From a virus: a DNA stretch of 64,000 nt. The stretch spans positions 50,076-114,075 of the IMG/VR virus record IMGVR_UViG_3300045988_122291. One strand, given 5' to 3'. Below, one piece after another: positions 15,676-45,208 of the stretch; position 1 is the first letter of the stretch, and the number at the start of each line of letters is the position of its first letter. The notes beneath the pieces were generated by a model. That model was not told the DNA's origin, ran no database searches, and saw only the letters and a program-made list of their open reading frames with translations. The position numbers and the translations under genes were made by a program.

Positions 15676-16029
15676 TTATGAGATTTCAAGTGTGCCATAA
15701 GAGATTTCACCATAATCACCCAGAGAAGATAATTTTACGTCTACTTTGATAGAGAAACCATACTCATTACCTGTAGTAAATTCTTTGATAATTAAATGAA
15801 CACCACCATTTTGACATTGCATTAAAATATCACAAGTCTCTCCCGTATTAGACATGAGTTTCGGTGAAAGCAAAAATCGTGAATTGTAATAGTCTCTAAT
15901 GTAAATATAGCTTGTAGCAGGAACATAAAATTCTCTATAAAAATCAGACCCCATATACAAGTCGTCAATCTTCTTATAAATCATAGCCCCACTTGTTTTC
16001 TCAATTTTTCCAGCTACAATCGCGTTCAT
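15676..16029 (-). CDS. MNGIVTGK-family paralogue P1 (117 aa)
   Basis: MNAIVAGKIEKTSGAMIYK ... ISYGTLEIS; shares termini with eight other ORFs. Confidence 0.7.
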   Translation of the reverse strand: MNAIVAGKIEKTSGAMIYKKIDDLYMGSDFYREFYVPATSYIYIRDYYNSRFLLSPKLMSNTGETCDILMQCQNGGVHLIIKEFTTGNEYGFSIKVDVKLSSLGDYGEISYGTLEIS

Positions 16030-16129: not shown

Positions 16130-16411
16130 TTAATCTTTCTTAGGCGTAGTATAAGACTTAGCGTTTTCACTGTCGCCCATACCAAGAACACCATTTTGTG
16201 TAGTCGGGTCAACAAGTGCGTTCCATACGTTGACACAGACAAGGAAGAGACAGTAAGGATTACTGATAGTACCCTTCAGCACGTTGAGCACGCCTGCCCA
16301 TGTGGTCAAATCTGCCGCTGTTAGACCTGCGTAAGCAAGTGCAGTAGCGAATGCACCAAGAATTACATTTACCCAAAACGCATAGTTTTTAATTCTCACC
16401 TTTAGATTCAT
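16130..16411 (-). CDS. holin (phage_holin_1-like)
   Basis: 93 aa, hydrophobic helices, polar tail DPTTQNGVLGMGDSENA; 1-nt overlap with endolysin stop. Confidence 0.7.
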   Translation of the reverse strand: MNLKVRIKNYAFWVNVILGAFATALAYAGLTAADLTTWAGVLNVLKGTISNPYCLFLVCVNVWNALVDPTTQNGVLGMGDSENAKSYTTPKKD

Positions 16412-18135
16412 TACTCTTCACTCCCATACATACCCACTCTATCGTTAATAACAAGAACTCGTAGCAAATCTTCACTTAGGTCAAGACCCTTGCCATTACC
16501 CTTGAGATAGCCCTTATTCACGAGCTTAATGATAGTGTCCTTACCCCAGTCTGGAACTGAAGCAATGCTATCATATACCTTATTGTACTTAGCGTACACT
16601 TCTTCAGCTACATTGCCAGCAACCTTCTTAGCTTCGGTCTGAGCAATAGCTGTGGTTTCTGCTTTAGTCAAATCTTCCACTCCTTTAACCATGTTTAGGA
16701 AATTAGTCCACTGTTCATAATGTCGCACGAAGGGGTCTGGACAATTACCTACAATAAATGTTTTTGTACCTTGGCGCACAAGAATATATCCTGTTGGCAC
16801 ACTTACACAAGACACTTTAGTTGTACGAGTTTTTACACTCTTCTGAACACCACCAATACTATAATTAGCTGTTAAGCGATCAATAGCAAGATAATCATAA
16901 CGAGTGCTTCTACCTAATCGTGTTTTGTTAGTACGATACCCCTTAGTCGCGCAAACAGCTTGTACAACGTCTAAGTTATTTTGAATAGAAGAAGTATAAA
17001 GATGTCCTGCTTCGCAACCGTCTACTTGTAAACATTCGTTCCAAAATACGTCATATTGGTGTTGATTCATTTCCAATAAATTATATTGGAAATGCTTATC
17101 TTTAAGCCACTGTTCACACCAATAGTAAAGGTCTGTGCCATAATTACGGTAACTTACACTACCATCTTTCTTGTTAGAAACAGTATAGTCAATCATTAGG
17201 TTATCAAGAATCTCTTTAACTCTATCAATCTTGCGTTGTTTCTTAACATGAAACTCAATGCCACATACATCTTGGTAAGTTCCCTTCATATAATGTCCGT
17301 CACCTTGTACCCATACAAGGAATCGAATTTCATCATCAGTGAGAGGTAAACCAGACCCAATATACATAGCACCGTTTTTAACTAAGTTTTGTCGAGAGCC
17401 TGTAAGCATATCTCCCCATAGTTGCTCACGCCATTTATATGTTCCAGTCTTTTTATTAAAATTATTGTTTGCCGCCCACATACGATGATTAGAAGTTGCT
17501 TCAAGACCATGACAGCTTAGAACTTCAGCTTCATAAGGCTCAACCACGCTACTAACAGCGCCAAAAGATAGTCTATCAGTATTAGTGTCATACTGCATAA
17601 CTTCTTCTCCAACCTTAATATCTCCAAGAGCCTTCCAACCTTCGCGTGTTAGAAGTTCGGTTGAATCCAAAGGTAAACAATACTTATGTGTAACATGATA
17701 GTGCATACATACATGCTTAATATCAACCCCATACTGTTCCATAAGCCATTGCACGAGCTTTACAGTACGCTTCTGGGTTTCCATAGTAATTACATATTCG
17801 CCATTCTTCCAGTCGCTGCACATTTCAATACCAATGGAATTAACGTTGCGACAGCTATTGTAATAATAGCCTGTTTCACTACCACAATGCCATGCAGTAT
17901 TAGCAAGGTTTACAGTCTGCCAAATTTCGTTCTCATCAACAAAGAAATGTGCGCTTGCATTAAGCCCACTACAACGAGCAAAATAATCTGCATTGTTCTT
18001 TGCAGTATCGCCCTTGCCAGCAGTAAAGTGAATAACAATCCATTGAATCTTATGCTTTACGCCATTCTTTGTGCGACCATACATAAAATTGGAAGGATTG
18101 CATTCCTTAAATTGAAAATATGGTTTTTCTGCCAT
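16411..18135 (-). CDS. N-acetylmuramoyl-L-alanine amidase endolysin (Amidase_2/PGRP) containing an intein; SLH-like C-terminus
   Basis: IVIHFTAG, AHFFVD, WHCG, HVTHKY|...|CPDPF; C-terminal VPDWGKDTIIKLVNKGYLKGNGKGLDLSEDLLR. Confidence 0.85.
   Translation of the reverse strand: MAEKPYFQFKECNPSNFMYGRTKNGVKHKIQWIVIHFTAGKGDTAKNNADYFARCSGLNASAHFFVDENEIWQTVNLANTAWHCGSETGYYYNSCRNVNSIGIEMCSDWKNGEYVITMETQKRTVKLVQWLMEQYGVDIKHVCMHYHVTHKYCLPLDSTELLTREGWKALGDIKVGEEVMQYDTNTDRLSFGAVSSVVEPYEAEVLSCHGLEATSNHRMWAANNNFNKKTGTYKWREQLWGDMLTGSRQNLVKNGAMYIGSGLPLTDDEIRFLVWVQGDGHYMKGTYQDVCGIEFHVKKQRKIDRVKEILDNLMIDYTVSNKKDGSVSYRNYGTDLYYWCEQWLKDKHFQYNLLEMNQHQYDVFWNECLQVDGCEAGHLYTSSIQNNLDVVQAVCATKGYRTNKTRLGRSTRYDYLAIDRLTANYSIGGVQKSVKTRTTKVSCVSVPTGYILVRQGTKTFIVGNCPDPFVRHYEQWTNFLNMVKGVEDLTKAETTAIAQTEAKKVAGNVAEEVYAKYNKVYDSIASVPDWGKDTIIKLVNKGYLKGNGKGLDLSEDLLRVLVINDRVGMYGSEE
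16744..17679 (-). other. intein (312 aa) with LAGLIDADG homing-endonuclease domain
   Basis: Block A CLPLDSTELLTREGWKALGDIKVGEEV, block B LEATSNHRMW, LVWVQGDGHY, terminal FIVGN followed by the +1 Cys of CPDPF; occupies aa 153-464 of the lysin. Confidence 0.75.
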
Positions 18136-18427: not shown

Positions 18428-18823
18428 TTATTCAAAGTAGCCTATTTCAATTTTATCAAAATAGTCACTCAAATAACCACTTAAACTTCTAATGTGTATT
18501 TCATCTCGGTCGGAATTATACCAAACTGAAAATAATGAGTAATTTTGCCTCGGATAGTTTTTGGGTGATACATAGAAATTATTTTCTTTGTCATCGCTAC
18601 TAATATCTCCCATAAAATTAGTGGGGAAAATAATAACTTCTTTTCCATCTGAAGTTTCTCTGTAAAATCTAAAAAGAATATTGTTTTTCGGCGTGCGATA
18701 TAAATTTGTATTGTATAGCGTTAAATTGTAATCATTCGGCATATTCCATGATTGTGTTACATGAAACACCATAGTGTCTCCGACACTTTTAGTTTCCTGT
18801 TTATTAGTGACAATAGCATTCAT
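18428..18823 (-). CDS. MNGIVTGK-family paralogue P3 (131 aa)
   Basis: MNAIVTNKQETKSVGDTMVF ... KIEIGYFE; own SD GGCGGTGA, no uORF, 19 nt after the P2 stop. Confidence 0.7.
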   Translation of the reverse strand: MNAIVTNKQETKSVGDTMVFHVTQSWNMPNDYNLTLYNTNLYRTPKNNILFRFYRETSDGKEVIIFPTNFMGDISSDDKENNFYVSPKNYPRQNYSLFSVWYNSDRDEIHIRSLSGYLSDYFDKIEIGYFE

Positions 18824-18842
18824 ACTGTCACCGCCTTTGAAG

Positions 18843-19145
18843 TTACTTTATGGAAATTCGATAGAATTTTGCATTTAATCCTTCTCTGTTGTTTGTTGCC
18901 CCCATTATATTTCCATTTTCGAAATATAAATGAACCGATGGTGCGTCTGGACTGACAGAAAAAGTTTTTCCGTCCCATTTTCCAATAGAGAAATCGTAAC
19001 TGTAAAGAATATAAACACAAGGGTCGTTCGCTTTTGGTGTTTCTATTACTGTTCCATGGTATTCTATCCAAAAAGAACTGTTGTACACTATTTCGAACTC
19101 TTTGCTTGTTCCTAATCCAATGGGCAAAGTAATAATTCCGTTCAT
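18843..19145 (-). CDS. MNGIVTGK-family paralogue P2 (100 aa, divergent)
   Basis: Starts MNGIITLPIGLG; preceded by leader L2. Confidence 0.6.
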   Translation of the reverse strand: MNGIITLPIGLGTSKEFEIVYNSSFWIEYHGTVIETPKANDPCVYILYSYDFSIGKWDGKTFSVSPDAPSVHLYFENGNIMGATNNREGLNAKFYRISIK

Positions 19146-19216
19146 TTACTCTGCCCCCCCCAGTTTAATCTGAAGAATGCTCATTGCTCAAATTCCTTTC
19201 TGAGCAATGAGAAGGT
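19146..19216 (-). promoter_or_regulatory. poly-G uORF leader L2
   Basis: uORF 19184..19146 (MSILQIKLGGAE*). G8 tract = C-run 19154-19161, length fixed by ORF-track coordinates. The TAA stop abuts the P2 ATG (TAAATG). The uORF start lies inside the 11-bp hairpin 19180-19211. Confidence 0.6.
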
Positions 19217-19591
19217 TTATTCAAAAGTGCCGATTTCTACTGAAGAAAGGTTATTTCTCATTTTAAAATTATCAGAAACTCCCAAAGCAAGTCTTATGCT
19301 GGGGTCTGAATATTTTTTTACAACCTCTACCCAATCTGCTTCGTTAGGCGAAAGATATGTCGCAATCGTCGAACTGTCGTTATCTACCATTACAAAGCGC
19401 ATTGAAATATAAGCTACTCTGTCACCAAAAGATTCTATTTTTAAGAAATAAGGTGGCTCAAGATAAGAAGTATTTGGCACATAAAAATACATGAGTGCAG
19501 TTGCTTCTGTAGGAACACTGCCTACTAAAGCAGTTTTCCATACCAAACTTCCAGCCTGTTTCTCTTGCTTACCAGTCACAATACCGTTCAC
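19217..19591 (-). CDS. MNGIVTGK-family paralogue P4 (124 aa, GTG start)
   Basis: (V)NGIVTGKQEKQAGSLVWK ... SSVEIGTFE. Confidence 0.7.
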   Translation of the reverse strand: MNGIVTGKQEKQAGSLVWKTALVGSVPTEATALMYFYVPNTSYLEPPYFLKIESFGDRVAYISMRFVMVDNDSSTIATYLSPNEADWVEVVKKYSDPSIRLALGVSDNFKMRNNLSSVEIGTFE

Positions 19592-19746
19592 TCTTGTGCA
19601 CCTTCTTTCGGTGCATACTTCTCATTGCTCAAATAATTTAGTGGGAGACTATGCCCCCCCCCAGTTGAAACTGAGGTTGACTTACAAATACACATTTTTG
19701 TGTCTCCTTTGTTATGTGTTGTTTGTAATTTGAGCAATGGGAAGGG
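19592..19746 (-). promoter_or_regulatory. poly-G uORF leader L3
   Basis: SD GGAGA + uORF 19695..19588 (35 aa). G9 tract 19654-19662, confirmed by the APPQ translation of the plus-strand ORF 19491..19733. Its TGA overlaps the P4 GTG (GTGA). SD hairpin 19597-19615. Confidence 0.65.
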
Positions 19747-20103
19747 TTAAGAAAATAATTCAAAACCTAAATTACTATATTCATTAGTAGTAATAGTATT
19801 GGTATTGAAATTTATGGTAAGCGTTGCAACTGAAGAGCTACCTATGCCATTAAGAGTGATAACCGATTGTTTATAAATAGCCCCTGTTTCATATCCAGAA
19901 CTGCTATTTATAACAATCGCATATTTCTCTTGAGGAAAAATCACACAATAGGTCGTATAATAACTACGATATGTTTCAGTAGCAATAACTGAATATTTAT
20001 CTATATCAGTAATCGTTGCATTACCATTGTAGTATTGCCGAACAGCAGAAGTTGGCACTTTACCACCAGTTGTTTCAATCTTACCCGTTACAATTCCGTT
20101 CAT
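19747..20103 (-). CDS. MNGIVTGK-family paralogue P5 (118 aa)
   Basis: MNGIVTGKIETTGGKVPTS ... NLGFELFS. Confidence 0.7.
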   Translation of the reverse strand: MNGIVTGKIETTGGKVPTSAVRQYYNGNATITDIDKYSVIATETYRSYYTTYCVIFPQEKYAIVINSSSGYETGAIYKQSVITLNGIGSSSVATLTINFNTNTITTNEYSNLGFELFS

Positions 20104-20262
20104 CCAACAGCACCAACTTTCTTCAGTGCTGTTCCATTGCTCAAATTAAAGTTTAGGAGAATGCTAACGCATTGCCCCCCCCCAACTGAAGTCAGGGTTG
20201 ACTGAATGTTAAACATAAATGTTCTCCTTTTGTATAGTTTTTATTTGAGCAATGGAAGGGAA
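20104..20262 (-). promoter_or_regulatory. poly-G uORF leader L4
   Basis: SD GGAGAA + uORF 20216..20100 (38 aa). G9 tract 20175-20183. Its TGA overlaps the P5 ATG (ATGA). Hairpin 20106-20133; 12-bp arms CCATTGCTCAAA 20134-20145 / 20244-20255. Confidence 0.6.
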
Positions 20263-20616
20263 TTACCAATAAATGAAAACTGCCATATTCGTTCCGACAT
20301 ATGTTAATGTCATTGCTGAGAAATCGACAGTATACAATGCTGAAGTTGAAGTAGCGGGAGAATAAAAAGTATAGACAGTATCGGTAATTATTTTTCTATC
20401 TTCCCAATCAACGGGTTGAGGGAGATATATGATATATTTTCCTTGTGGATATATCTCATAGCATCCGTGCGAACTTATATATGTTCTAATGCACCTTAAT
20501 TTAGATATATCGAAAGGAGAATTTGTTTTATCAATAACAGGTCTTTCTATGCTTGTAGGCACAGTATCACTTATACTTTGCTTTTCTTCAATTTTACCGC
20601 TAACAATCCCATTCAT
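20263..20616 (-). CDS. MNGIVTGK-family paralogue P6 (117 aa)
   Basis: MNGIVSGKIEEKQSISDTVPTS ...; C-terminus divergent. Confidence 0.7.
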   Translation of the reverse strand: MNGIVSGKIEEKQSISDTVPTSIERPVIDKTNSPFDISKLRCIRTYISSHGCYEIYPQGKYIIYLPQPVDWEDRKIITDTVYTFYSPATSTSALYTVDFSAMTLTYVGTNMAVFIYW

Positions 20617-20785
20617 ACAGTCACCTGCTTTCGGTGACTAACATTGCTCAAAAAGGACTTTCGCCCTATTAGGAAGTTATTGCCCCCCCCAAGTGAAACA
20701 TAAGTTCACTCAGAGAAAACTTGATACGCATGGTATCACTCCTTGTTATTTAATTGAGCAACGTGTGTGAAGGGTGGTTAAGTGG
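20617..20785 (-). promoter_or_regulatory. poly-G uORF leader L5
   Basis: SD GGAG + uORF 20731..20669 (MRIKFSLSELMFHLGGAITS*). G8 tract 20683-20690. The current frame stops 52 nt before the P6 ATG; the G9/G6 frame is open for 24 codons to the overlapping TGA. SD hairpin 20620-20638. Confidence 0.6.
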
Positions 20786-21127
20786 TTAGGAAATTTCGAG
20801 AATGCCAAGTTCTAATGAGTTCATACATTCGCTAAAAGGAATGAAACGTGAAGCAGAATTAGTTCGAACCATACAAGCGCCTTGCCACTGGCTACAATAA
20901 ATGTTGTCTGGTAAATCCAGTGTTATGTGCCTTTCATCATCTCGCGAAATCACGAAATTTTTCACGCAAATTAAAGTAATATTATTACTTTTATCTATAA
21001 TACGAATATACTTCAAAGCATTATAGTCAAAAGTAAAATTTGATTGACTTAAATCAATCGACTGTTCACTCTTAAACACCATACTACCAGCAGTCTTTTC
21101 AATCTTGCCAGTTACTATACCATTCAT
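20786..21127 (-). CDS. MNGIVTGK-family paralogue P7 (113 aa)
   Basis: MNGIVTGKIEKTAGSMVFKSEQ ... SLELGILEIS; ATG 21127 preferred over the GTG at 21130. Confidence 0.7.
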   Translation of the reverse strand: MNGIVTGKIEKTAGSMVFKSEQSIDLSQSNFTFDYNALKYIRIIDKSNNITLICVKNFVISRDDERHITLDLPDNIYCSQWQGACMVRTNSASRFIPFSECMNSLELGILEIS

Positions 21128-21250
21128 CACAAGACCTCCTTTCGGAGGTTGCCAATCCTGTTGCTCAAAGGAAAGGCATTTCCAATCATTAGGTTAGAAC
21201 AATGCCCCCCAAGTGAATGAGAGTTTTAGTCTTAATCATATGTATTCTCC
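21128..21250 (-). promoter_or_regulatory. poly-G uORF leader L6
   Basis: SD GGAGAA + uORF 21239..21189 (MIKTKTLIHLGGIVLT*). G6 tract 21205-21210. The G7 frame is open for 26 codons to the TGA that shares its A with ATG 21127. CCTCC-GAAA-GGAGG hairpin 21135-21148 buries the SD. Confidence 0.6.
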
Positions 21251-38716: not shown

Positions 38717-39973
38717 TTATAATGCCCCACAAATTTTTCTCCTTTCAGTCAAAAACGAAGTTTTTGTACTTACAAAAAGAAGATTTTTATAATTTATAGA
38801 GCCATTATTTACTTTAATTCCTGTAAGATTCCGAATATCAAAATATCCACTGTTTCTTCTTCCGAAAACAAAATATTCTTCACCTTTGTATTTAACTTTA
38901 TCAAATAATCTAAAACCTTTAACAAAATACGGTGCTTGATTGTTTTTTCTAAGCCCTCCTTTGTAAATTTTTTGCTTGTGTATTTTTCTGTTATGACATC
39001 TAACCTTTTTTTGAAAATAATAATATCCAAGAGATTGTGCATTTGGATTACCACTAATACAACGAGCATCTATATAATGTCCTTTTGGTAAATTATGCGA
39101 AATTCTAACTCGCTTAGTAATATATCCATAAGTTTCTTGCACACTTGAATATTTTTTCTTTAATTCAAGAATTAAAGTTTTCTTCATAACGTTCATAAAA
39201 GTAGCATCTCTAAAAGATTTTCCGCTACAAACTGTATTTGGTAATTTAATCAAACCTTTATGATAGTCTCTGTGACATGATTTGCATAAAGTAACTAAAT
39301 TACTTGGAGAATTGCCACCAGTTTTGCGAGACTTAATATGATGAACATTTAAGATTTGGTCTTTAGACTTGCCTTTGCAACATTGACAAGTATGATTATC
39401 TCTAAATAATACATATTCTCTTACGTTCCAAAAGCCTTCTTGCTCTCCATGCTGATACTCTGTATTACTAATATTTGGATTTTTGAGTTTTTGAGTGTCA
39501 AAAGAAGCTACTTCAACAATTATATTCTTGATAGGAAGAATGTGACAAATATTGTCAATAACTGTTAAATGTGTTTGTACCTTTTGCTTAACGCTCGGTG
39601 CTAACCACCCCTTCTTTTTTGAAGAAACGCGATTATTAAATCTTGGCTTTCGATACCTCGTTTTTCTATATCTTCGTGCTCTTCGACATTCTTTTCGAGA
39701 AGAAAGCAAATTAACAATATCATTTCTCAACTCGATTTCTGCTTCATACATTACTTTTGTTTGAGTAGAAGCAGATGCTCCAATATACTTGCTCCCTGCA
39801 TCAATTCCCAAACTAATATTTTGAACATATTTAGTAGAATTATACAAAAGTTGTATAACAAATGGACATCGTTTTATTACTTTAGCTTTTCCTTCTTTTA
39901 GCAAACGTCTAACTTTACCATGTCTGGAAGTAGGCATAAGGGGATTGCCTTGAGCGTCTAAAACATAAACCAT
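38717..39973 (-). CDS. iscB: IscB-type RNA-guided nuclease (PLMP + split RuvC + HNH)
   Basis: N-terminal NPLMPTSRHGKVRRLL (PLMP/RRXRR), RuvC-I LGIDAGSKYIG, Arg-rich bridge CRRARRYRKTRYRKPRF, RuvC-II IVEVASFD, HNH CQCC...NVHHIKSRKTGGNSPSNLVTLCKSCH, RuvC-III HYIDARC. Confidence 0.85.
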   Translation of the reverse strand: MVYVLDAQGNPLMPTSRHGKVRRLLKEGKAKVIKRCPFVIQLLYNSTKYVQNISLGIDAGSKYIGASASTQTKVMYEAEIELRNDIVNLLSSRKECRRARRYRKTRYRKPRFNNRVSSKKKGWLAPSVKQKVQTHLTVIDNICHILPIKNIIVEVASFDTQKLKNPNISNTEYQHGEQEGFWNVREYVLFRDNHTCQCCKGKSKDQILNVHHIKSRKTGGNSPSNLVTLCKSCHRDYHKGLIKLPNTVCSGKSFRDATFMNVMKKTLILELKKKYSSVQETYGYITKRVRISHNLPKGHYIDARCISGNPNAQSLGYYYFQKKVRCHNRKIHKQKIYKGGLRKNNQAPYFVKGFRLFDKVKYKGEEYFVFGRRNSGYFDIRNLTGIKVNNGSINYKNLLFVSTKTSFLTERRKICGAL

Positions 39974-41183: not shown

Positions 41184-41258
41184 TGGCACAAGACTTAGGA
41201 CTTTAACCTAAACGAACAGTTTTGGAGACTGTCATGCTAACAATTACATCAGTCTTGC
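41184..41258 (-). tRNA. tRNA-Trp: tRNA-Trp (anticodon CCA)
   Basis: Hand-folded cloverleaf: acceptor GCAAGAC/GTCTTGT, anticodon arm ACAGT-CTCCAAA-ACTGT, T arm TTAGG-TTAAAGT-CCTAA, discriminator G, encoded CCA. Confidence 0.7.
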
Positions 41259-41261
41259 ATA

Positions 41262-41336
41262 TGGAGCGCTATGGCGTAATCGAAACGCTATCTTCAGTTT
41301 GGAAAACTGAGGTTCTTACCGTTAAACTAATAGCGC
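41262..41336 (-). tRNA. tRNA-Gly: tRNA-Gly (anticodon TCC)
   Basis: Acceptor GCGCTAT/ATAGCGC, anticodon arm TCAGT-TTTCCAA-ACTGA, discriminator U, encoded CCA. Confidence 0.8.
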
Positions 41337-41452
41337 AAATTGTCCCGCGACCCAAAGGTACGTCATGTGCACTTGACTTGTTTTCCACTGGGAATCGCAG
41401 TACAGTCATGAGCTAAACCGCAATAAACGTGAACTTAACAAACGGGGAACAT

Positions 41453-41528
41453 TGGTAGCGATGGTGCGATTCGGACGCACGAAATCATGGAGTCAAAGTC
41501 CATTGCCTTACCGCTTGGCTACACCGCT
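41453..41528 (-). tRNA. tRNA-Gln: tRNA-Gln (anticodon TTG)
   Basis: Acceptor AGCGGTG/CATCGCT, anticodon arm ATGGA-CTTTGAC-TCCAT, T arm GTGCG-TCCGAAT-CGCAC, encoded CCA. Confidence 0.75.
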
Positions 41529-41694
41529 ATATTTCTCCTACGATGACGGGTCGCAGGAGAGAAATATGAAATTATGCCGACACGTTTGAGCGTGTCTATT
41601 AAATTGTTTGTCTGCCGTACCAGACGATGTGTGTGGAATGTATATTTTTATTTTCTGCACTTAATACAAAAAATTTACCTTGTACGGAAGGCAT

Positions 41695-41770
41695 TGGTCT
41701 CCCATCGCAGGCTCGAACTGCGGACTTCTTGATTAAAAGTCAAGTGCTCTACCAACTGAGCTAATGGAAG
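41695..41770 (-). tRNA. tRNA-Lys: tRNA-Lys (anticodon TTT)
   Basis: D arm GCTCAGTTGGTAGAGC, anticodon arm CTTGA-CTTTTAA-TCAAG, T arm CGCAG-TTCGAGC-CTGCG, encoded CCA. Confidence 0.85.
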
Positions 41771-41778
41771 ATTTGATT

Positions 41779-41792
41779 GGGGCAAATGCCCC
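41779..41792 (-). terminator. short GC hairpin (terminator or processing site)
   Basis: GGGGCA-tt-TGCCCC between the small CDS 41798..41902 and tRNA-Lys. Confidence 0.35.
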
Positions 41793-41797
41793 ATCAC

Positions 41798-41902
41798 TTA
41801 TCGTAGATTGTAACGGTCTACACCGCGCATATTCTTCTGCATCTCAAGATTTGCTTCATAGAGACCACGGAAGAAATGCTTAATATTGCTCTTAACACCC
41901 AT
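41798..41902 (-). CDS. small protein (34 aa)
   Basis: GGAGGTGA SD 6 nt before the ATG; own TTGACA-N17-TACAAT promoter overlapping the sigma gene 3' end. Confidence 0.45.
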   Translation of the reverse strand: MGVKSNIKHFFRGLYEANLEMQKNMRGVDRYNLR

Positions 41903-41938
41903 CGGTATCACCTCCTAACATTATCTATTGTATCACAC

Positions 41939-42553
41939 TTATCTCATTTTGTCAAGTGTTTTTAGAATTTTTTCGATATAAATTTTTCTTTCAGCGTCAT
42001 CGTCACTATAACGTTTTACATATCTGGAATTGCGCTTATAATAATCTCGCAAATTTCTCACAACAGCAGAACATCTACTAAAAGAAACACCTGTATCTTC
42101 GCTTAGTTCTCGGCACGTTTTATTCTCAATTCTACCAAGTAAAACTTTAAGCGTTGTCAATGGTAGTTTTTCGATAAACCATTCTGCCCATATCTTCCCC
42201 AGCGCTTCAGCTTCAGTATTTTGCTTAGAAGCAATAAATTCTTCTAAAGCATATGTTGCTTTTTCGCTGACCGAAGAAACTTCTGCGCTTAAAGAAAGTG
42301 TTTCCATGCCAAATAAGCTATCATGTCTCATTACACTGCGTATACTATTAAGCATACATTTATAAGCAAGCGTAGAAAATTTTGTTGTGCCATTAAAAGT
42401 TAATGCCGCTTTGCACAATCCAATAGCACAAATATCATACCATTCGTTGATACTTAGAGCTTGATTATTCAAAAAAGAATAAATTAGATTGTGGTTTTCT
42501 TCTACCAGCTTTCTTTGTTCATTATTCAGTTTTGAAATTTTTGTTTCGCGCAT
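41939..42553 (-). CDS. sigma-70 family sigma factor (phage-encoded, small)
   Basis: 204 aa; region 2-like N-half and region 4 HTH (CRELSEDTGVSFSRCSAVVRNL). Confidence 0.7.
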   Translation of the reverse strand: MRETKISKLNNEQRKLVEENHNLIYSFLNNQALSINEWYDICAIGLCKAALTFNGTTKFSTLAYKCMLNSIRSVMRHDSLFGMETLSLSAEVSSVSEKATYALEEFIASKQNTEAEALGKIWAEWFIEKLPLTTLKVLLGRIENKTCRELSEDTGVSFSRCSAVVRNLRDYYKRNSRYVKRYSDDDAERKIYIEKILKTLDKMR

Positions 42554-42577
42554 AAGTATCTTCCTTTTAATTTTTAG

Positions 42578-42651
42578 TGGAGCGAATGACGGGTACTGCC
42601 CCCGCGTCCTCAGTTTGGGAAACTAAAATTCTACTATTGAACTACATCCGC
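42578..42651 (-). tRNA. tRNA-Gly: tRNA-Gly (anticodon CCC)
   Basis: Acceptor GCGGATG/CATTCGC, anticodon arm TTAGT-TTCCCAA-ACTGA, discriminator U, encoded CCA. Confidence 0.75.
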
Positions 42652-42749
42652 ATATGATAACAGGGAACGAGTTAGAAAGAAGGTATGTCAAAAGAAGGAG
42701 AAAAAATCTCGTTCCCTGTTATTTACTTATGTTTATTATGTTTTAGAAG

Positions 42750-42893
42750 TTATCGCTTAAACTTCGGCAGAAGGTTATGATTTGCGTCCTCAAGCATATT
42801 CTGCACTGCAAGGTCATACTTCTGCTTCTCGGTCATAGGCTTGTTCTTCTTTTCGTTTTCCTTTGCTCGGCGGTTATTCTTAGCCATTTTCAT
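42750..42893 (-). CDS. small basic protein (47 aa)
   Basis: MKMAKNNRRAKENEKKNKPMTEKQKYDL...; weak GGAA SD. Confidence 0.4.
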   Translation of the reverse strand: MKMAKNNRRAKENEKKNKPMTEKQKYDLAVQNMLEDANHNLLPKFKR

Positions 42894-42909
42894 TTCGTTC
42901 CTTTCAAAA

Positions 42910-43551
42910 TCAGTTTACAATGTACACATTACGATATTGTACACCAAGGTTGCTTGCTTCAGACTTAGAGCCTACTGCAATATCAATAATGTTGCCCTTA
43001 ATTGCACCGCCTGTATCAGCGCAATAAAAAACACCATTAAAACCTTCAATTCTAATCTTAGAGCCAAGAGGAATTACACGAGGGTCAACAGCTACAGTAT
43101 ACCACGGTGTTACTGGTGTACCAAGAGCAGTAATTGAACCGCCTTCATCGGCTGAGCCTGTGTAGAAAGTACATTTCATACGAGCTACAAGTCGACCACG
43201 CTTGGCTTCTTCTGCTTTTCTCTTAGCTTCTTCTTCAGCCTTGCGCTTTGCTTCTGCTTCGCGTTCAGCATTGAGCGCTTTGTTATAATCTTCTGTTAGT
43301 GCTACTACGGTTTCATTATGTTCATCCCACTTGTCCTTGGCATGGAGAATAATGAAATCATCTTCTTCTGCTCCCAGAGTTCTTGCACATTCAGCAAGCT
43401 GGTGAGCAGTGTTTCGCATTGTGATTGCTTCATCGAGATTGGATTTAATCTCCGCACTCGTCTGGCTTGAAGCAAAAGCCGATGTAGAAAGACATACACC
43501 AACCATCACTACGGTAGCGAAACTTTTTGTTAGTTTGTTTCCAAACTTCAT
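42910..43551 (-). CDS. secreted 3D-domain cell-wall protein (MltA/RlpA-like barrel)
   Basis: Signal peptide MKFGNKLTKSFATVVMVGVCLSTSAFA, EAKRKAEEEAKRKAEE coil, 3D domain VAVDPRVIPLGSKIRIEG...YCADTGGAIKGNIIDI; the ORF-track 5' extension overlaps tRNA-Met. Confidence 0.8.
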   Translation of the reverse strand: MKFGNKLTKSFATVVMVGVCLSTSAFASSQTSAEIKSNLDEAITMRNTAHQLAECARTLGAEEDDFIILHAKDKWDEHNETVVALTEDYNKALNAEREAEAKRKAEEEAKRKAEEAKRGRLVARMKCTFYTGSADEGGSITALGTPVTPWYTVAVDPRVIPLGSKIRIEGFNGVFYCADTGGAIKGNIIDIAVGSKSEASNLGVQYRNVYIVN

Positions 43552-43598
43552 TGGTATCGCGTCCTTTCGTTTATTTTGGTTTTTGTTCTCTTGAACAA

Positions 43599-43677
43599 TG
43601 GTAGCCCGTGTGGTGCTCGAAACCACGAAATCTTCCGGTTATGAGCCGGATGCTTTAACCAACTTAGCTAACGGGCT
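43599..43677 (-). tRNA. tRNA-Met: tRNA-Met (anticodon CAT; could be Ile2-type)
   Basis: Acceptor AGCCCGT/ACGGGCT, anticodon arm TCCGG-CTCATAA-CCGGA, T arm GTGGT-TTCGAGC-ACCAC, encoded CCA. Confidence 0.75.
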
Positions 43678-43707
43678 ATATATCGAGGGCATATTGCCCT
43701 CAGTATT

Positions 43708-43788
43708 TTACTTAGTGCTGTGACGCTTGGTGCAGTCACCATAACACCATTCTTCAAAGTCTACTGACTTGTCATACTGATAACCCAT
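43708..43788 (-). CDS. small protein (26 aa)
   Basis: GGAGGTAAG SD, own TTGACA-N17-TACAAT promoter, followed by the GAGGGCA/TGCCCTC hairpin. Confidence 0.4.
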   Translation of the reverse strand: MGYQYDKSVDFEEWCYGDCTKRHSTK

Positions 43789-44007
43789 GATACTTACCTC
43801 CTTTGTTCACTTAAACATTGTATCACGACCTTTCGCCGTTGTCAAGTATAATTTTTAATTTGATATTGCGTACTACTGCAAGAAGCGAAACGAAATTTGT
43901 TCTTGTCTCTGTTTATATATGGCTCTACACTTGGAACAAATATCTGCAAATATTTGTGCGTAGTCGCACCATACGCCGCTCATTTCATACGCTATATCAT
44001 TTATGTT

Positions 44008-44066
44008 TGGCTGAACAGGACTTGAACCTGTATCTCACACGCGTGTTCCCAATTACACCATCAGTC
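44008..44066 (-). pseudogene. tRNA-like remnant lacking an anticodon arm
   Basis: D arm GTGT-AATTGGGA-ACAC and T arm ACAGG-TTCAAGT-CCTGT with only 10 nt between them; sequence verified against the plus-strand ORF translation. Confidence 0.3.
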
Positions 44067-44188
44067 AATATAAACCCGTCTTTATTCATCAAACCTGAAG
44101 CCACAGGTAACGGTTGTGATGATTATTTTTGAAAGGAGTCGTGCTTCTGGTAGTAATAGAAGCACATGAAAAATGAAAAAGATGTGGT

Positions 44189-45028
44189 CTATTTAATCTT
44201 CTTTTGTTGTTTCTTATATCTTTCCATATACTTATGAAGAATTTGTTTTAATTCATCTGACAATTCTTCGTCTGCATATCTAAAAATATAACCAGCGGAA
44301 GTATGATGTGATTTGTATTTTTCTTCTTTGGAAAGACACATCCATAAATGTCGAAAAGTCACCTTAGGTAATTGTCTACAACATTCTTTTAGAGAAGGAA
44401 ACCATTGCTCTTCTCCTGTATGTTTATTGATTGCGATAACTGGTTGTGATGCTTTTTCAGCAAAAATTTGAGATGCTTTTTCAAGGATTTCTGGATGCCT
44501 TTCAGCAACATCTCTGTTTGAATCAGCATGAGAAATAAAACAACAAGTTTCTTTACTATATAATTTGTTTCCCTTAACAAGAGTATCTTTATCCAACATA
44601 ATCATTTGTAAAGGATTTTGAATCCAAAATTCAAAACCTTGTAACTCTGTTACATCTCGATAAAAATTTGCGAAATCTTCCCATTCTTTAGAACAAGTTG
44701 TGCCTTTATAAGTAGGATATTTTTCTTGAAATTTATCTGAACAACGATAAATCATGTGTCGCCATTTCTCGTAAACTCTTTTATAAAATTCGTCACGAAG
44801 AACATCTTTAGACAAAGAATTATATCCCATGCCATAAACAGTTCGCGCATACTCACCGTTATTCTCGCCATGTCTACATTGAGTATGACATTCACGAATT
44901 TCTTTTAATGGCTTATACACTTCCATACCACACACTTTACATTTTGCATGATAAAGAATGTGACCATGTTTCCGTTGCTCAGTTTGATAGATATTTGTAT
45001 AAATCCCAATATCTTCAATCTTATTCAT
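44189..45028 (-). CDS. putative free-standing homing endonuclease / DNA-binding protein (279 aa)
   Basis: Cys/His cluster near the N-terminus (CKVCG...CHTQCRH); sits between tRNA genes like other phage HEGs; family not recognised. Confidence 0.4.
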   Translation of the reverse strand: MNKIEDIGIYTNIYQTEQRKHGHILYHAKCKVCGMEVYKPLKEIRECHTQCRHGENNGEYARTVYGMGYNSLSKDVLRDEFYKRVYEKWRHMIYRCSDKFQEKYPTYKGTTCSKEWEDFANFYRDVTELQGFEFWIQNPLQMIMLDKDTLVKGNKLYSKETCCFISHADSNRDVAERHPEILEKASQIFAEKASQPVIAINKHTGEEQWFPSLKECCRQLPKVTFRHLWMCLSKEEKYKSHHTSAGYIFRYADEELSDELKQILHKYMERYKKQQKKIK

Positions 45029-45129
45029 TTGTAATTCACCTTTTCTGAATTTTAATTTTAGCGAAGGCTCAAAGGAAAAGGCTTTGTTGTCTCAATAATT
45101 AGCTTTATTATTGCTACCCTATCGCTAAG

Positions 45130-45208
45130 TGGTGCTACTGAGAGGACTCGAACCTCCAACTTACGAATTTTGAGTTCGTCACCTATCTGCCAATTGGGTT
45201 ACAGTAGC
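45130..45208 (-). tRNA. tRNA with anticodon CAA but short (class I) variable loop
   Basis: Acceptor GCTACTG/CAGTAGC, anticodon arm ACGAA-CTCAAAA-TTCGT, 5-nt variable loop, T arm GGAGG-TTCGAGT-CCTCT, discriminator A, encoded CCA. Confidence 0.6.

Follow-up and report, generated by a model that had tools for sequence, protein, structure and literature searches.

Inteins are known mainly in proteins of replication, repair, nucleotide metabolism and packaging, and this bias has been used in arguments about their function. Lysin genes of phages can be interrupted by group I introns that carry a homing endonuclease, such as those of lysK in Staphylococcus phage K and plyTW in Twort, which splice as RNA. 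The locus described here lies in a stretch of 64,000 nucleotides of viral DNA, the whole of which is referred to as the window. Like the lysK and plyTW introns, it appears to hold a mobile, self-splicing element that interrupts a lysis gene; unlike them, its reading frame is continuous and the insert has a predicted HINT fold. An RNA intron was considered and rejected, given that the Rfam intron families give no hit in the region and that the frame is uninterrupted.

Among inteins of solved structure, the best sequence relative of the window intein is AceL NrdHF-1-1 (6zgq; Hoffmann et al., 2020, PMC7891396), which is of phage or metagenomic origin and splices fast without a penultimate His. 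At C1:6 this intein has a Gly that cannot be exchanged for His (G145H) without loss of splicing, the missing His being compensated for by Arg N3:11 (PMC7891396). Both inteins have a Gly-Asn end, Arg N3:11, Met N3:12, Cys C2:4 and a Pro/Gly kink in block C2. AceL NrdHF, however, is naturally split, begins with Ala1 (class 3), has Thr at C1:5 (M-C-T) and resides in an RNR beta subunit; it lacks an embedded endonuclease, its halves being separated by a free-standing GIY-YIG gene. The window intein, in contrast, is contiguous, has Cys1 and Val C1:5, contains an embedded LAGLIDADG domain and is hosted by an endolysin.

The best structural matches are PI-SceI (1vde/1ef0), TliVMA/PhoVMA (7qsu/7qst) and PI-PfuI (1dq3), in which, as in the window, a HINT domain that begins with Cys1 and ends in Asn before a +1 Cys is interrupted by a LAGLIDADG endonuclease of the double-motif type. 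They differ from the window intein in their penultimate His and in their V-ATPase and RNR hosts, their identity to it is about 10%, and PI-SceI has an extra DNA-recognition region; to our knowledge, none of them has a Cys at position 4 of block F. The nearest inteins in 50,697 deposited phage genomes are those of RNR, NAMPT, RtcB and primase genes, with approximately 24–28% identity over some 98–100% of the intein, for example in RNR alpha of the Staphylococcus phages Romulus and Remus and in RNR beta of Tenacibaculum phage PTm1. These inteins belong to the same G-N clade and carry LAGLIDADG domains, but all of them sit in genes of nucleotide or nucleic-acid metabolism. Finally, in the class 3 inteins MP-Be DnaB and Msm/Mch DnaB1, for which a phage origin has been proposed, position 4 of block F is occupied by a Cys of the obligate type (PMC2807308, PMC7664689). 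MP-Be DnaB starts with Pro1 and is resembled by Pro1 variants of the lysin intein family, whereas the copy in the window differs from the class 3 DnaB inteins in keeping Cys1 and in having neither Trp N3:12 nor Thr C1:5.

The interrupted endolysin

The phage genome to which the window belongs derives from human-gut metagenomes; it measures 114 kb and is complete, as its direct terminal repeat of 75 bp shows. The endolysin precursor gene, identified from the list of open reading frames and its translation (positions 16411..18135 of the window, minus strand), encodes 574 aa plus a stop and is laid out as an Amidase_2 catalytic domain with the intein inside it, followed by a linker and a putative C-terminal wall-binding domain. 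The Pfam Amidase_2 model matches the precursor with E=4e-22 and finds this single copy in the 114-kb genome, and the eight further lysin families among the nine Pfam models searched are not found in the complete genome. The start of a 93-aa holin gene (16130..16411, minus strand; PHROG holin, E=2e-10) overlaps the stop of the endolysin, and the homolog of this holin in L001, the syntenic phage scaffold considered below, matches Pfam Phage_holin_1.

The N-extein (aa 1–152; 17680..18135, minus strand) contains the predicted zinc ligands His36 and His145 and the predicted catalytic Glu104, assigned by alignment to PlyL, PlyG and XlyA, the same three amidases that the structural model matches in Foldseek searches; all three show conservation of 90% or more across 92 homologs. 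The C-extein (aa 465–574; 16414..16743, minus strand) opens with Cys465 (16741–16743), the first residue of CPDPF, and continues with a helical linker and the C-terminal domain. In the alignment with PlyL (1yb0), H36 corresponds to H29, E104 to E90, H145 to H129 and C465 to C137, and we take H29, H129 and C137 to be the zinc ligands of PlyL. The claim of the initial annotation that the intein splits the segment between the His and Cys ligands of the zinc site is borne out by this correspondence, and the alignment shows the intein directly preceding the Cys that is predicted to bind the catalytic zinc together with His36 and His145. Cys465 would then have a double role, as the +1 nucleophile of splicing and as the third zinc ligand.

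Evidence for the insertion

On the precursor, the Amidase_2 profile (PF01510) aligns over positions 3–128 of 131 with 79.4 bits. When the exteins are joined, a comparison that the initial annotation had proposed, the contiguous profile is restored (3–131 of 131) and the score rises to 85.7 bits, against a cut-off of 26. The intein-free proteins P0103–P0113 (261–267 aa) are 89–95% identical to the lysin and read HVTHKYCPEPF across the site, and the closest of these alleles keep 94–95% identity along the entire 262-aa spliced extein. At the level of DNA, L001, a scaffold of 113.7 kb with about 90% nucleotide identity, is without exactly these 936 bp, the alignment breaking at window positions 17677 and 16745, which correspond to L001 positions 6459 and 6455. 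A candidate homing target can be read from L001–L004; in L001 the sequence across the empty site includes CATAAGTAT immediately followed by TGTCCAGAACCG, with the insertion point between the two. P0104 and P0106 represent a variant allele of the empty site, with CV. By member counts, intein-free alleles of the same lysin outnumber the intein-bearing ones, whose cluster has 38 members on contigs of up to 114 kb.

Given the empty alleles, the restoration of Amidase_2 on joining, the HINT and LAGLIDADG model and the conserved catalytic residues, the segment 16744–17679 (minus strand) is in all probability a real and mobile intein with an endonuclease, lodged in the only endolysin that could be recognised in the phage; an intein with a LAGLIDADG endonuclease that splits the zinc site of an Amidase_2 lysin had been supposed when the sequence was first read.

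Architecture and fold of the intein

The intein consists of 312 aa (aa 153–464; 16744..17679, minus strand), from Cys1 to Gly-Asn, and coincides exactly with the gap of the empty alleles and of L001. It is inserted in frame, after HVTHKY and before CPDPF; the coordinates and junctions originally assigned to it are exact, and all four landmarks originally quoted are present. The N-terminal HINT half (approximately aa 153–257; 17365..17679, minus strand) is beta-rich in the AlphaFold2 model and contains block A, CLPLDSTELL, with Cys1 (17677–17679), and block B, TSNHRMW, with T214-x-x-H217-R218-M219 (17479–17496). The LAGLIDADG homing-endonuclease domain follows (approximately aa 258–400, with approximate borders; 16936..17364, minus strand). 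Its first motif is LVWVQGDGHY, with D279 at 17299–17301, and a second, ECLQVDGC, which was not among the original landmarks, has D372 at 17020–17022; the corresponding helices of the model, 267–279 and 358–372, each end in an acidic residue. In the C-terminal HINT half (approximately aa 401–464; 16744..16935, minus strand), block F/C2 is VSC443VSVPTG, with Cys443 at 16807–16809, and block G/C1 is FIVG463N464, the last of the four landmarks, followed by the +1 Cys.

The insert thus has the nucleophile at position 1, the Thr-x-x-His of block B and the C-terminal Asn followed by Cys that are expected of an intein, and the two acidic-ended helices, together with similarity of fold, point to a LAGLIDADG endonuclease. 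A penultimate His, which is common in inteins but not universal, is replaced by Gly463. This replacement was noted from the start and is confirmed, but it is no oddity of the present copy, as Gly occupies C1:6 in 225 of 230 relatives and is a trait of the clade. In block F, a Cys takes the place of the Asp that is usual in class 1 inteins. Two defining traits of class 3 are absent as well: position 1 is a Cys, and the residues at the WCT positions are Met219, Cys443 and Val462, of which only the Cys fits. Cys1 (C153), T214, H217, D279, G280, C443, G463, N464 and C465 are invariant in 92 homologs; among the 230 relatives, D279 is retained in 222, D372 in 221 and the Cys at C2:4 in 229, while in block B Arg is found at N3:11 in 183 and Met at N3:12 in 132.

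AlphaFold2, supplied with the alignment of 92 sequences, gave a model with a pLDDT of 89.9 (a single-sequence run reached 35.5 and was unusable), and this confident model predicts a HINT plus LAGLIDADG fold for the insert. Its best Foldseek matches in the PDB are the TliVMA, PhoVMA, PI-SceI and PI-PfuI inteins, with E values from 4e-12 to 3e-7. The endonuclease I-DmoI is also matched (E of about 1e-5, TM of about 0.6 on the target), as are the endonuclease parts of PI-SceI and PI-PfuI, and in BFVD the model is best matched by RNR, DNA polymerase, TerL and portal proteins of phages that contain inteins. A profile of the intein finds AceL NrdHF (6zgq) with E=1.6e-7, while a single-sequence search of the PDB gave only marginal matches (E of about 0.06), to the Mtu RecA mini-intein in a shifted register. 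The intein and LAGLIDADG models of Pfam and NCBIfam (Intein_splicing, Hint, Hom_end_hint and the NCBIfam intein N- and C-terminal models) match neither the insert alone nor the precursor at E values up to 10, and PF14890 (Intein_splicing) finds nothing across the whole genome.

Distribution and mobility

An exhaustive search for related inteins, with E<=1e-3 as the limit, returned 2,500 cluster representatives. Of the 230 full-length relatives, 175 occupy the same Amidase_2 site, at the junction preceding Cys-Pro, although inteins are found at three or more different conserved sites of this domain; P0099 is a mini-intein derivative at the same lysin site. No second copy of the intein was found elsewhere in the phage genome.

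The element is shown by sequence comparison to move among diverged lysins. Near-identical Amidase_2 domains (97–100% over aa 28–152) hold three inteins that are mutually only 58–65% identical, and a lysin of 62% identity contains an intein of 86% identity. In the comparison with L005, the endonuclease region is 91% identical in amino acids and the exteins 59%, and overall the median identity is 45% for inteins and 26% for exteins. Intein and extein identities are nonetheless correlated (Spearman 0.75), so that much of the spread would have been vertical or between close relatives. The dN/dS of the intein relative to L005 is approximately 0.03–0.09, with saturated dS, and the catalytic residues are under purifying selection.

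A DNA search of deposited phages gave no match. When the proteins of the 50,697 deposited phage genomes were searched, no match extended over 80% or more of the lysin precursor, and the only inteins to turn up were distant ones in other genes. Proteins of this type in public records, such as WP_417001513.1 and DAZ51843.1, are labelled as plain amidases; for the sister lysin, WP_417001513.1 points to Agathobaculum and related gut Clostridia as candidate hosts. A full-text literature search that covered a minority of the subscription journals brought up no account of an intein-bearing endolysin or amidase, and none of 224 LysA genes of mycobacteriophages contains an intein (Payne and Hatfull, 2012).

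Splicing mechanism and alternative explanations

In the precursor of 574 aa the zinc site could not form and the enzyme would be inactive; in the cytoplasm the intein would excise itself and the exteins would be ligated into an amidase of 262 aa, which would then be released by the adjacent holin. It is reasonable to consider that lysis depends on splicing, since the zinc Cys sits 312 residues away from His145 and the search of the genome brought up no further lysin family. During co-infection, the LAGLIDADG domain would cut intein-free lysin alleles, and repair would copy the intein into them. The chemistry would most likely start with an N-S acyl shift at Cys1, followed by transfer of the N-extein to Cys465, by cyclisation of Asn464, in which Arg218, by analogy with AceL NrdHF, would assist instead of the missing penultimate His, and by an S-N shift that yields a native peptide bond. 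The same analogy suggests that a penultimate Gly is compatible with fast splicing (PMC7891396). Splicing is most likely constitutive and fast, which would make the element selfish and near-neutral for the phage.

The invariant Cys443 of block F may assist in these reactions, or it may offer an alternative route of the class 3 type. In a class 3 or hybrid mechanism, this internal Cys (C2:4) would be the first nucleophile and would form a branched thioester, Cys1 being dispensable or auxiliary. Such a mechanism is a tentative alternative, which we consider the less probable one: it is in keeping with the retention of the C2:4 Cys in all but one of the relatives, with the class 3 assignment of the closest solved relative, AceL NrdHF, which has Met N3:12, Arg N3:11, Gly C1:6 and the Pro..Gly kink in common with the window intein, and with the description of WCT inteins that start with Cys1 or Ser1 (Tori et al., PMC2807308). 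At the lysin site itself, three of the 175 inteins begin with Pro1, for which a class 1 start is impossible, whereas the other 172 retain Cys1. Thr at C1:5 is found in all three Pro1 variants but in only 21 of the 172 Cys1 copies (Fisher p=0.002, for sequences that are not phylogenetically independent), and this distribution suggests that the Cys-His-Thr triad matters only once Cys1 is lost; the present copy has Val at that position, and N3:12 is without Trp. The clade keeps the nucleophiles of both classes and could for that reason, although we think it improbable, be a natural bridge between class 1 and class 3 splicing.

A decayed, non-splicing HINT-like insertion or an assembly artefact, with a dead lysin or an insert tolerated as a permanent domain, would agree with the failure of every curated intein model and with the missing penultimate His. 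It is nevertheless highly improbable, as none of the splice-junction residues varies among the 92 to 230 relatives compared, dN/dS lies well under 1, the allele is found again on many independent contigs and samples, and the insert physically splits the zinc site of the only lysin found in a complete genome. A different proposal is that conditional splicing has been co-opted as a timer or sensor of lysis, maturation of the endolysin awaiting a redox, zinc or temperature signal. The redox sensor would be the cluster Cys1/Cys443/Cys465; in the zinc variant, the +1 Cys and the two extein His residues would possibly bind Zn2+ in the precursor and block splicing, as Zn2+ does in other inteins. The position of the insertion at a metal-ligand Cys, the convergence of three cysteines on the active site and the recurrence of inteins at three different conserved Amidase_2 sites speak in its favour, and conditional, redox-sensitive splicing is documented for other inteins, among them Msm DnaB (PMC6195587) and Pho RadA (PMC5790916). 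Against it, the same lysin is met more often without the intein than with it, which shows that the element is dispensable; the intact LAGLIDADG endonuclease, the mini-intein derivative and the swapping of inteins are hallmarks of selfish, cyclical homing; and homing elements generally insert at conserved catalytic motifs, which leaves a regulatory explanation unneeded. The timer is thus unlikely, and control of lysis by redox or temperature, which nothing in the sequence supports, is speculation; a selfish, constitutively splicing element, the null reading, is more likely.

Implications

With this large clade, the hosts of inteins come to include a new class of protein, the lysis enzymes that attack the cell wall. 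Hundreds of lysins of uncultivated phages contain the same element and are labelled in databases only as amidases; the intein models of Pfam and NCBIfam miss the insert and leave it invisible to annotation. When endolysins are mined as antimicrobials, such genes will be mis-sized and mis-expressed unless the intein is removed. The clade, with its Cys1 and Pro1 variants, its mini-intein and its Gly-Asn terminus, forms a natural series in which the transition from class 1 to class 3 can be studied, and new splicing tools can be drawn from it.

The zinc-ligand Cys is kept 312 residues from its partner His residues, and on this ground lysin inteins could, although we think it improbable, be more than parasites: the endolysin would be a zymogen whose maturation is gated by zinc or redox through Cys1, Cys443 and Cys465 and the two extein His residues, and the phage would gain a post-translational brake on premature lysis. 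Lysis time is an easy phenotype with which to ask whether inteins are purely selfish or regulatory.

Gene structure and intein-free alleles

The endolysin precursor (574 aa) is encoded on the minus strand at 16411..18135, and the insert, located by script from CLPLDS (residue 153) to the end of FIVGN (residue 464), occupies window positions 16744-17679 of the same strand, exactly where the initial annotation had placed it. It is flanked by ...HVCMHYHVTHKY on the N-terminal side and CPDPFVRHYEQW... on the C-terminal side. In the precursor, the Amidase_2 profile of Pfam is matched over residues 28-153 (profile positions 3-128 of 131, 79.4 bits), while the conceptually spliced 262-aa product matches the profile whole (3-131 of 131, 85.7 bits); joining the exteins thus restores a contiguous domain, so the outcome named at the outset as refuting the intein did not occur.

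The spliced extein can be aligned with PlyG, PlyL and XlyA, and the alignment equates His36, Glu104, His145 and Cys465 with His29, Glu90, His129 and Cys137 of PlyL. In the structures of PlyL and T7 lysozyme, the positions aligned with His36, His145 and Cys465 are the three zinc ligands and the one aligned with Glu104 is the catalytic Glu. Cys465, the +1 splicing nucleophile, is thus also zinc ligand number three. It lies 312 residues away from His145 in the precursor, a separation that would prevent the catalytic zinc site from assembling.

The spliced extein, used as a query, yielded 1,725 relatives, and the best 11 of these (proteins P0103-P0113, 261-267 aa) share 89-95% identity with the query over 99-100% of its length; their sequence runs HVTHKYCPEPF, uninterrupted, across the insertion site. 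Two of these intein-free alleles, P0104 and P0106, have HKYCVEPF in place of HKYCPEPF at the homing site, and may be endonuclease-resistant target variants. The contigs encoding P0109 come from human-gut metagenomes and are syntenic with the window (amidase, 93-aa holin, 117-aa ORF). At the DNA level, the syntenic intein-free scaffold L001 aligns at about 90% identity on both sides of the site (window 18405-17677 with L001 5729-6459, and window 16745-15009 with L001 6455-8194), the sole difference being the 936-bp insert, edged by two Cys codons. Five of the first 21 bases of the C-extein differ from the empty allele, which is compatible with a co-conversion tract, in a sample too small to press the point.

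Nature of the insert

Curated sequence models (Pfam and NCBIfam, with PF14890 searched across the genome) do not recognise the insert. A homology search with residues 153-464 only returned 101 proteins, almost all of them Amidase_2 lysins with assorted partner domains for wall binding or a second catalytic activity (PG_binding_1, glucosaminidase, SPOR, SH3, Cpl-7 and choline-binding repeats), together with two distant matches to RNR small subunits. In an alignment of 92 sequences all inserts have Cys as their first residue, Gly-Asn as their last two and Cys at the +1 position, and the columns of C153, P155, L162, G166, W167, T214, H217, Q277, D279, G280, V441, C443, R454, G463, N464 and C465 are invariant. 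The AlphaFold2 model built from this alignment is confident (pLDDT 89.9, pTM 0.72), and its top Foldseek matches in the PDB are endonuclease-bearing inteins (TliVMA, 3.7e-12; PhoVMA, 3.9e-10; PI-SceI, 2.6e-9; PI-PfuI, 3.5e-8), interleaved with Amidase_2 catalytic domains (XlyA, PlyL, PlyG, AmiA, AmpD) and followed by the LAGLIDADG enzyme I-DmoI. Among viral models (BFVD), the best matches are intein-bearing RNR, DNA polymerase, methylase, portal and terminase proteins. An RNA intron was ruled out, as the region has no match among the Rfam intron families. Taken together, the uniform junctions, the invariant columns, the modelled fold and the lack of an Rfam intron match identify the insert as a full-length intein, in which a double-motif LAGLIDADG endonuclease interrupts the HINT domain. 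The original proposal of such an intein in the zinc site of the lysin was essentially right, as the empty alleles, the restored profile, the model and the PlyL alignment all indicate.

The intein part of the model is also matched by A0A8S5NZS4 (BFVD match 39), a 561-aa 'TIGR02594 family protein' from a gut Myoviridae contig. Proteins of this family are CHAP/NlpC-like hydrolases of the cell wall, so inteins may also occur in lysins with a different type of catalytic domain.

Splicing route

A 29-member family profile retrieves the AceL NrdHF intein (PDB 6zgq, E=1.6e-7). This intein has Ala1, Met at N3:12, Cys at C2:4, Thr at C1:5 and Gly at C1:6; its splicing is complete within minutes and is abolished by G145H, and the C-scissile carbonyl accepts a hydrogen bond from Arg N3:11, which stands in for the missing His (PMC7891396). 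The window intein shares Arg218-Met219 at N3:11-12, Cys443 at C2:4, which is followed by a Pro..Gly turn, and Gly at C1:6 (Gly463-Asn464), but has Cys1 and Val462 instead of Ala1 and Thr C1:5. Its full-length relatives keep Gly C1:6 (225/230), Cys C2:4 (229/230), His N3:10 (229/230) and, less often, Arg N3:11 (183/230). The penultimate Gly first remarked upon is indeed present; given its frequency and the fast splicing of AceL NrdHF, it is a clade trait compatible with efficient splicing, neither a peculiarity of this copy nor a defect. The intein belongs to this Gly-Asn, AceL NrdHF-like clade, in a new class of host protein and at a new insertion site.

The exact route is less certain than the reading of the Gly. 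The block-F Cys is invariant and the nearest relative, AceL NrdHF, is class 3, both of which point to a class 3 or hybrid route with an internal thioester at Cys443; this is nevertheless rather doubtful, since Cys1 is retained in 172 of the 175 inteins at this lysin site, which speaks for class 1. Three inteins of this lysin site begin with Pro1 (P0227, P0231 and P0294). All three have Thr C1:5 (FITGN), compared with 21 of the 172 Cys1 copies (Fisher p=0.002, indicative only, as the sequences are not independent), and are presumably class 3 splicers that arose inside a mostly Cys1 family. Because the window copy has Val462, a class 1 start with Cys443 as an auxiliary residue is on balance favoured. 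A few WCT inteins with a Cys1 or Ser1 start were noted earlier by Tori et al. (PMC2807308).

Mobility and distribution

The lysin at locus L005 is a different one, its whole exteins sharing about 59% aa identity with those of the window lysin. The two inteins are 86% identical, a figure that rises to 91% in the endonuclease part; with dN at 0.05-0.10 and a saturated dS, dN/dS lies well below 0.1. At locus L006, the Amidase_2 N-extein is 94% identical and the intein just 65%. The metagenomic lysins P0001/P0002, P0005 and P0011 are 97-100% identical over Amidase_2 (aa 28-152), while their three inteins are mutually only 58-65% identical. Over all pairs, inteins have a median identity of 45% and the host domain one of 26%, and the correlation of intein and extein identities (Spearman 0.75) indicates transfer mostly among related lysins. 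The catalytic Asp residues of the endonuclease are kept in 222/230 and 221/230 relatives. In the Amidase_2-SH3 lysin P0099 (422 aa) the zinc-Cys site is likewise occupied, by a mini-intein that has lost its endonuclease domain and so represents a more advanced point in the homing cycle. Related inteins occupy two further conserved Amidase_2 sites, AWH/CG and the position immediately after the first zinc-ligand His (IH/C or IH/S); P0010 (983 aa) and P0237 contain two inteins each, those of P0010 being related, and the lysins with further sites or two inteins are P0010, P0237, P0285 and P0306.

When 1.84 billion cluster representatives were searched exhaustively with phmmer, 2,500 matched at E<=1e-3, of which 506 also did so at 1e-10 and 99 at 1e-30. 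The hundred best matches are nearly all lysins that carry the insert around residue 140-160, and remoter members lie in family A DNA polymerases (...PN/C...GN/CQNIP), RNR and other proteins. Among 50,697 deposited phage genomes, relatives of the intein are at most 28% identical and reside in RNR, NAMPT, RtcB and primase genes, and none of the records has a match spanning 80% or more of the lysin precursor. An 85%-identical intein is already in NCBI, in DAZ51843.1 (Caudoviricetes sp.) and WP_417001513.1 (Agathobaculum butyriciproducens), both named solely as N-acetylmuramoyl-L-alanine amidase. No published description of an intein in a lysin was found in the literature searched, whose coverage is incomplete.

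Genomic context and implications

The virus record is 114,075 bp long, and the window covers its bases 50076-114075; direct terminal repeats of 75 bp mark the record as a complete genome. The cluster of the intein-bearing allele has 38 members, on contigs of up to 114 kb. The holin directly follows the lysin, its start overlapping the lysin stop. Small paralogous genes in tandem (about 100-135 aa, MNAIV.../MNGIV... N-termini, period about 512 bp) flank this lysis cassette on the minus strand (window 15676-16029 and 18428-21130). In three of the spacers, a conserved motif some 44 nt long (19639-19682, 20160-20203 and 20667-20710) contains a C8-C9 homopolymer; spacers alone align with L001 (92-99% identity) and ORF bodies do not, which suggests hypervariable cassettes, possibly with phase-variable expression. 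A free-standing gene for an HNH homing endonuclease (38717-39973, minus strand, 418 aa; PHROG E=6e-60) adds another type of mobile endonuclease to the genome, which also has six clustered tRNA genes (Trp, Gly, Gln, Lys, Met and Leu; 41184-45208, minus strand), and a replication module with a 1309-aa DNA polymerase, an exonuclease V-like helicase, a RecJ-like exonuclease and a DnaB-like helicase.

Amidase_2 is present in one copy, and no Amidase_3, GH25, CHAP, Phage_lysozyme, NlpC/P60, M23 or SLT domain was found in the complete 114,075-bp genome. With its one recognisable lysin cut at a zinc ligand, a phage in circulation must splice that protein, and no other indirect argument for activity is as strong. 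The element is best read as a selfish intein, competent for homing, whose splicing the endolysin needs in order to mature; control of lysis by redox, zinc or temperature finds no support and seems improbable. The interest of lysin inteins lies in their breadth, their invisibility to annotation and the simple phenotype they offer for testing intein function.
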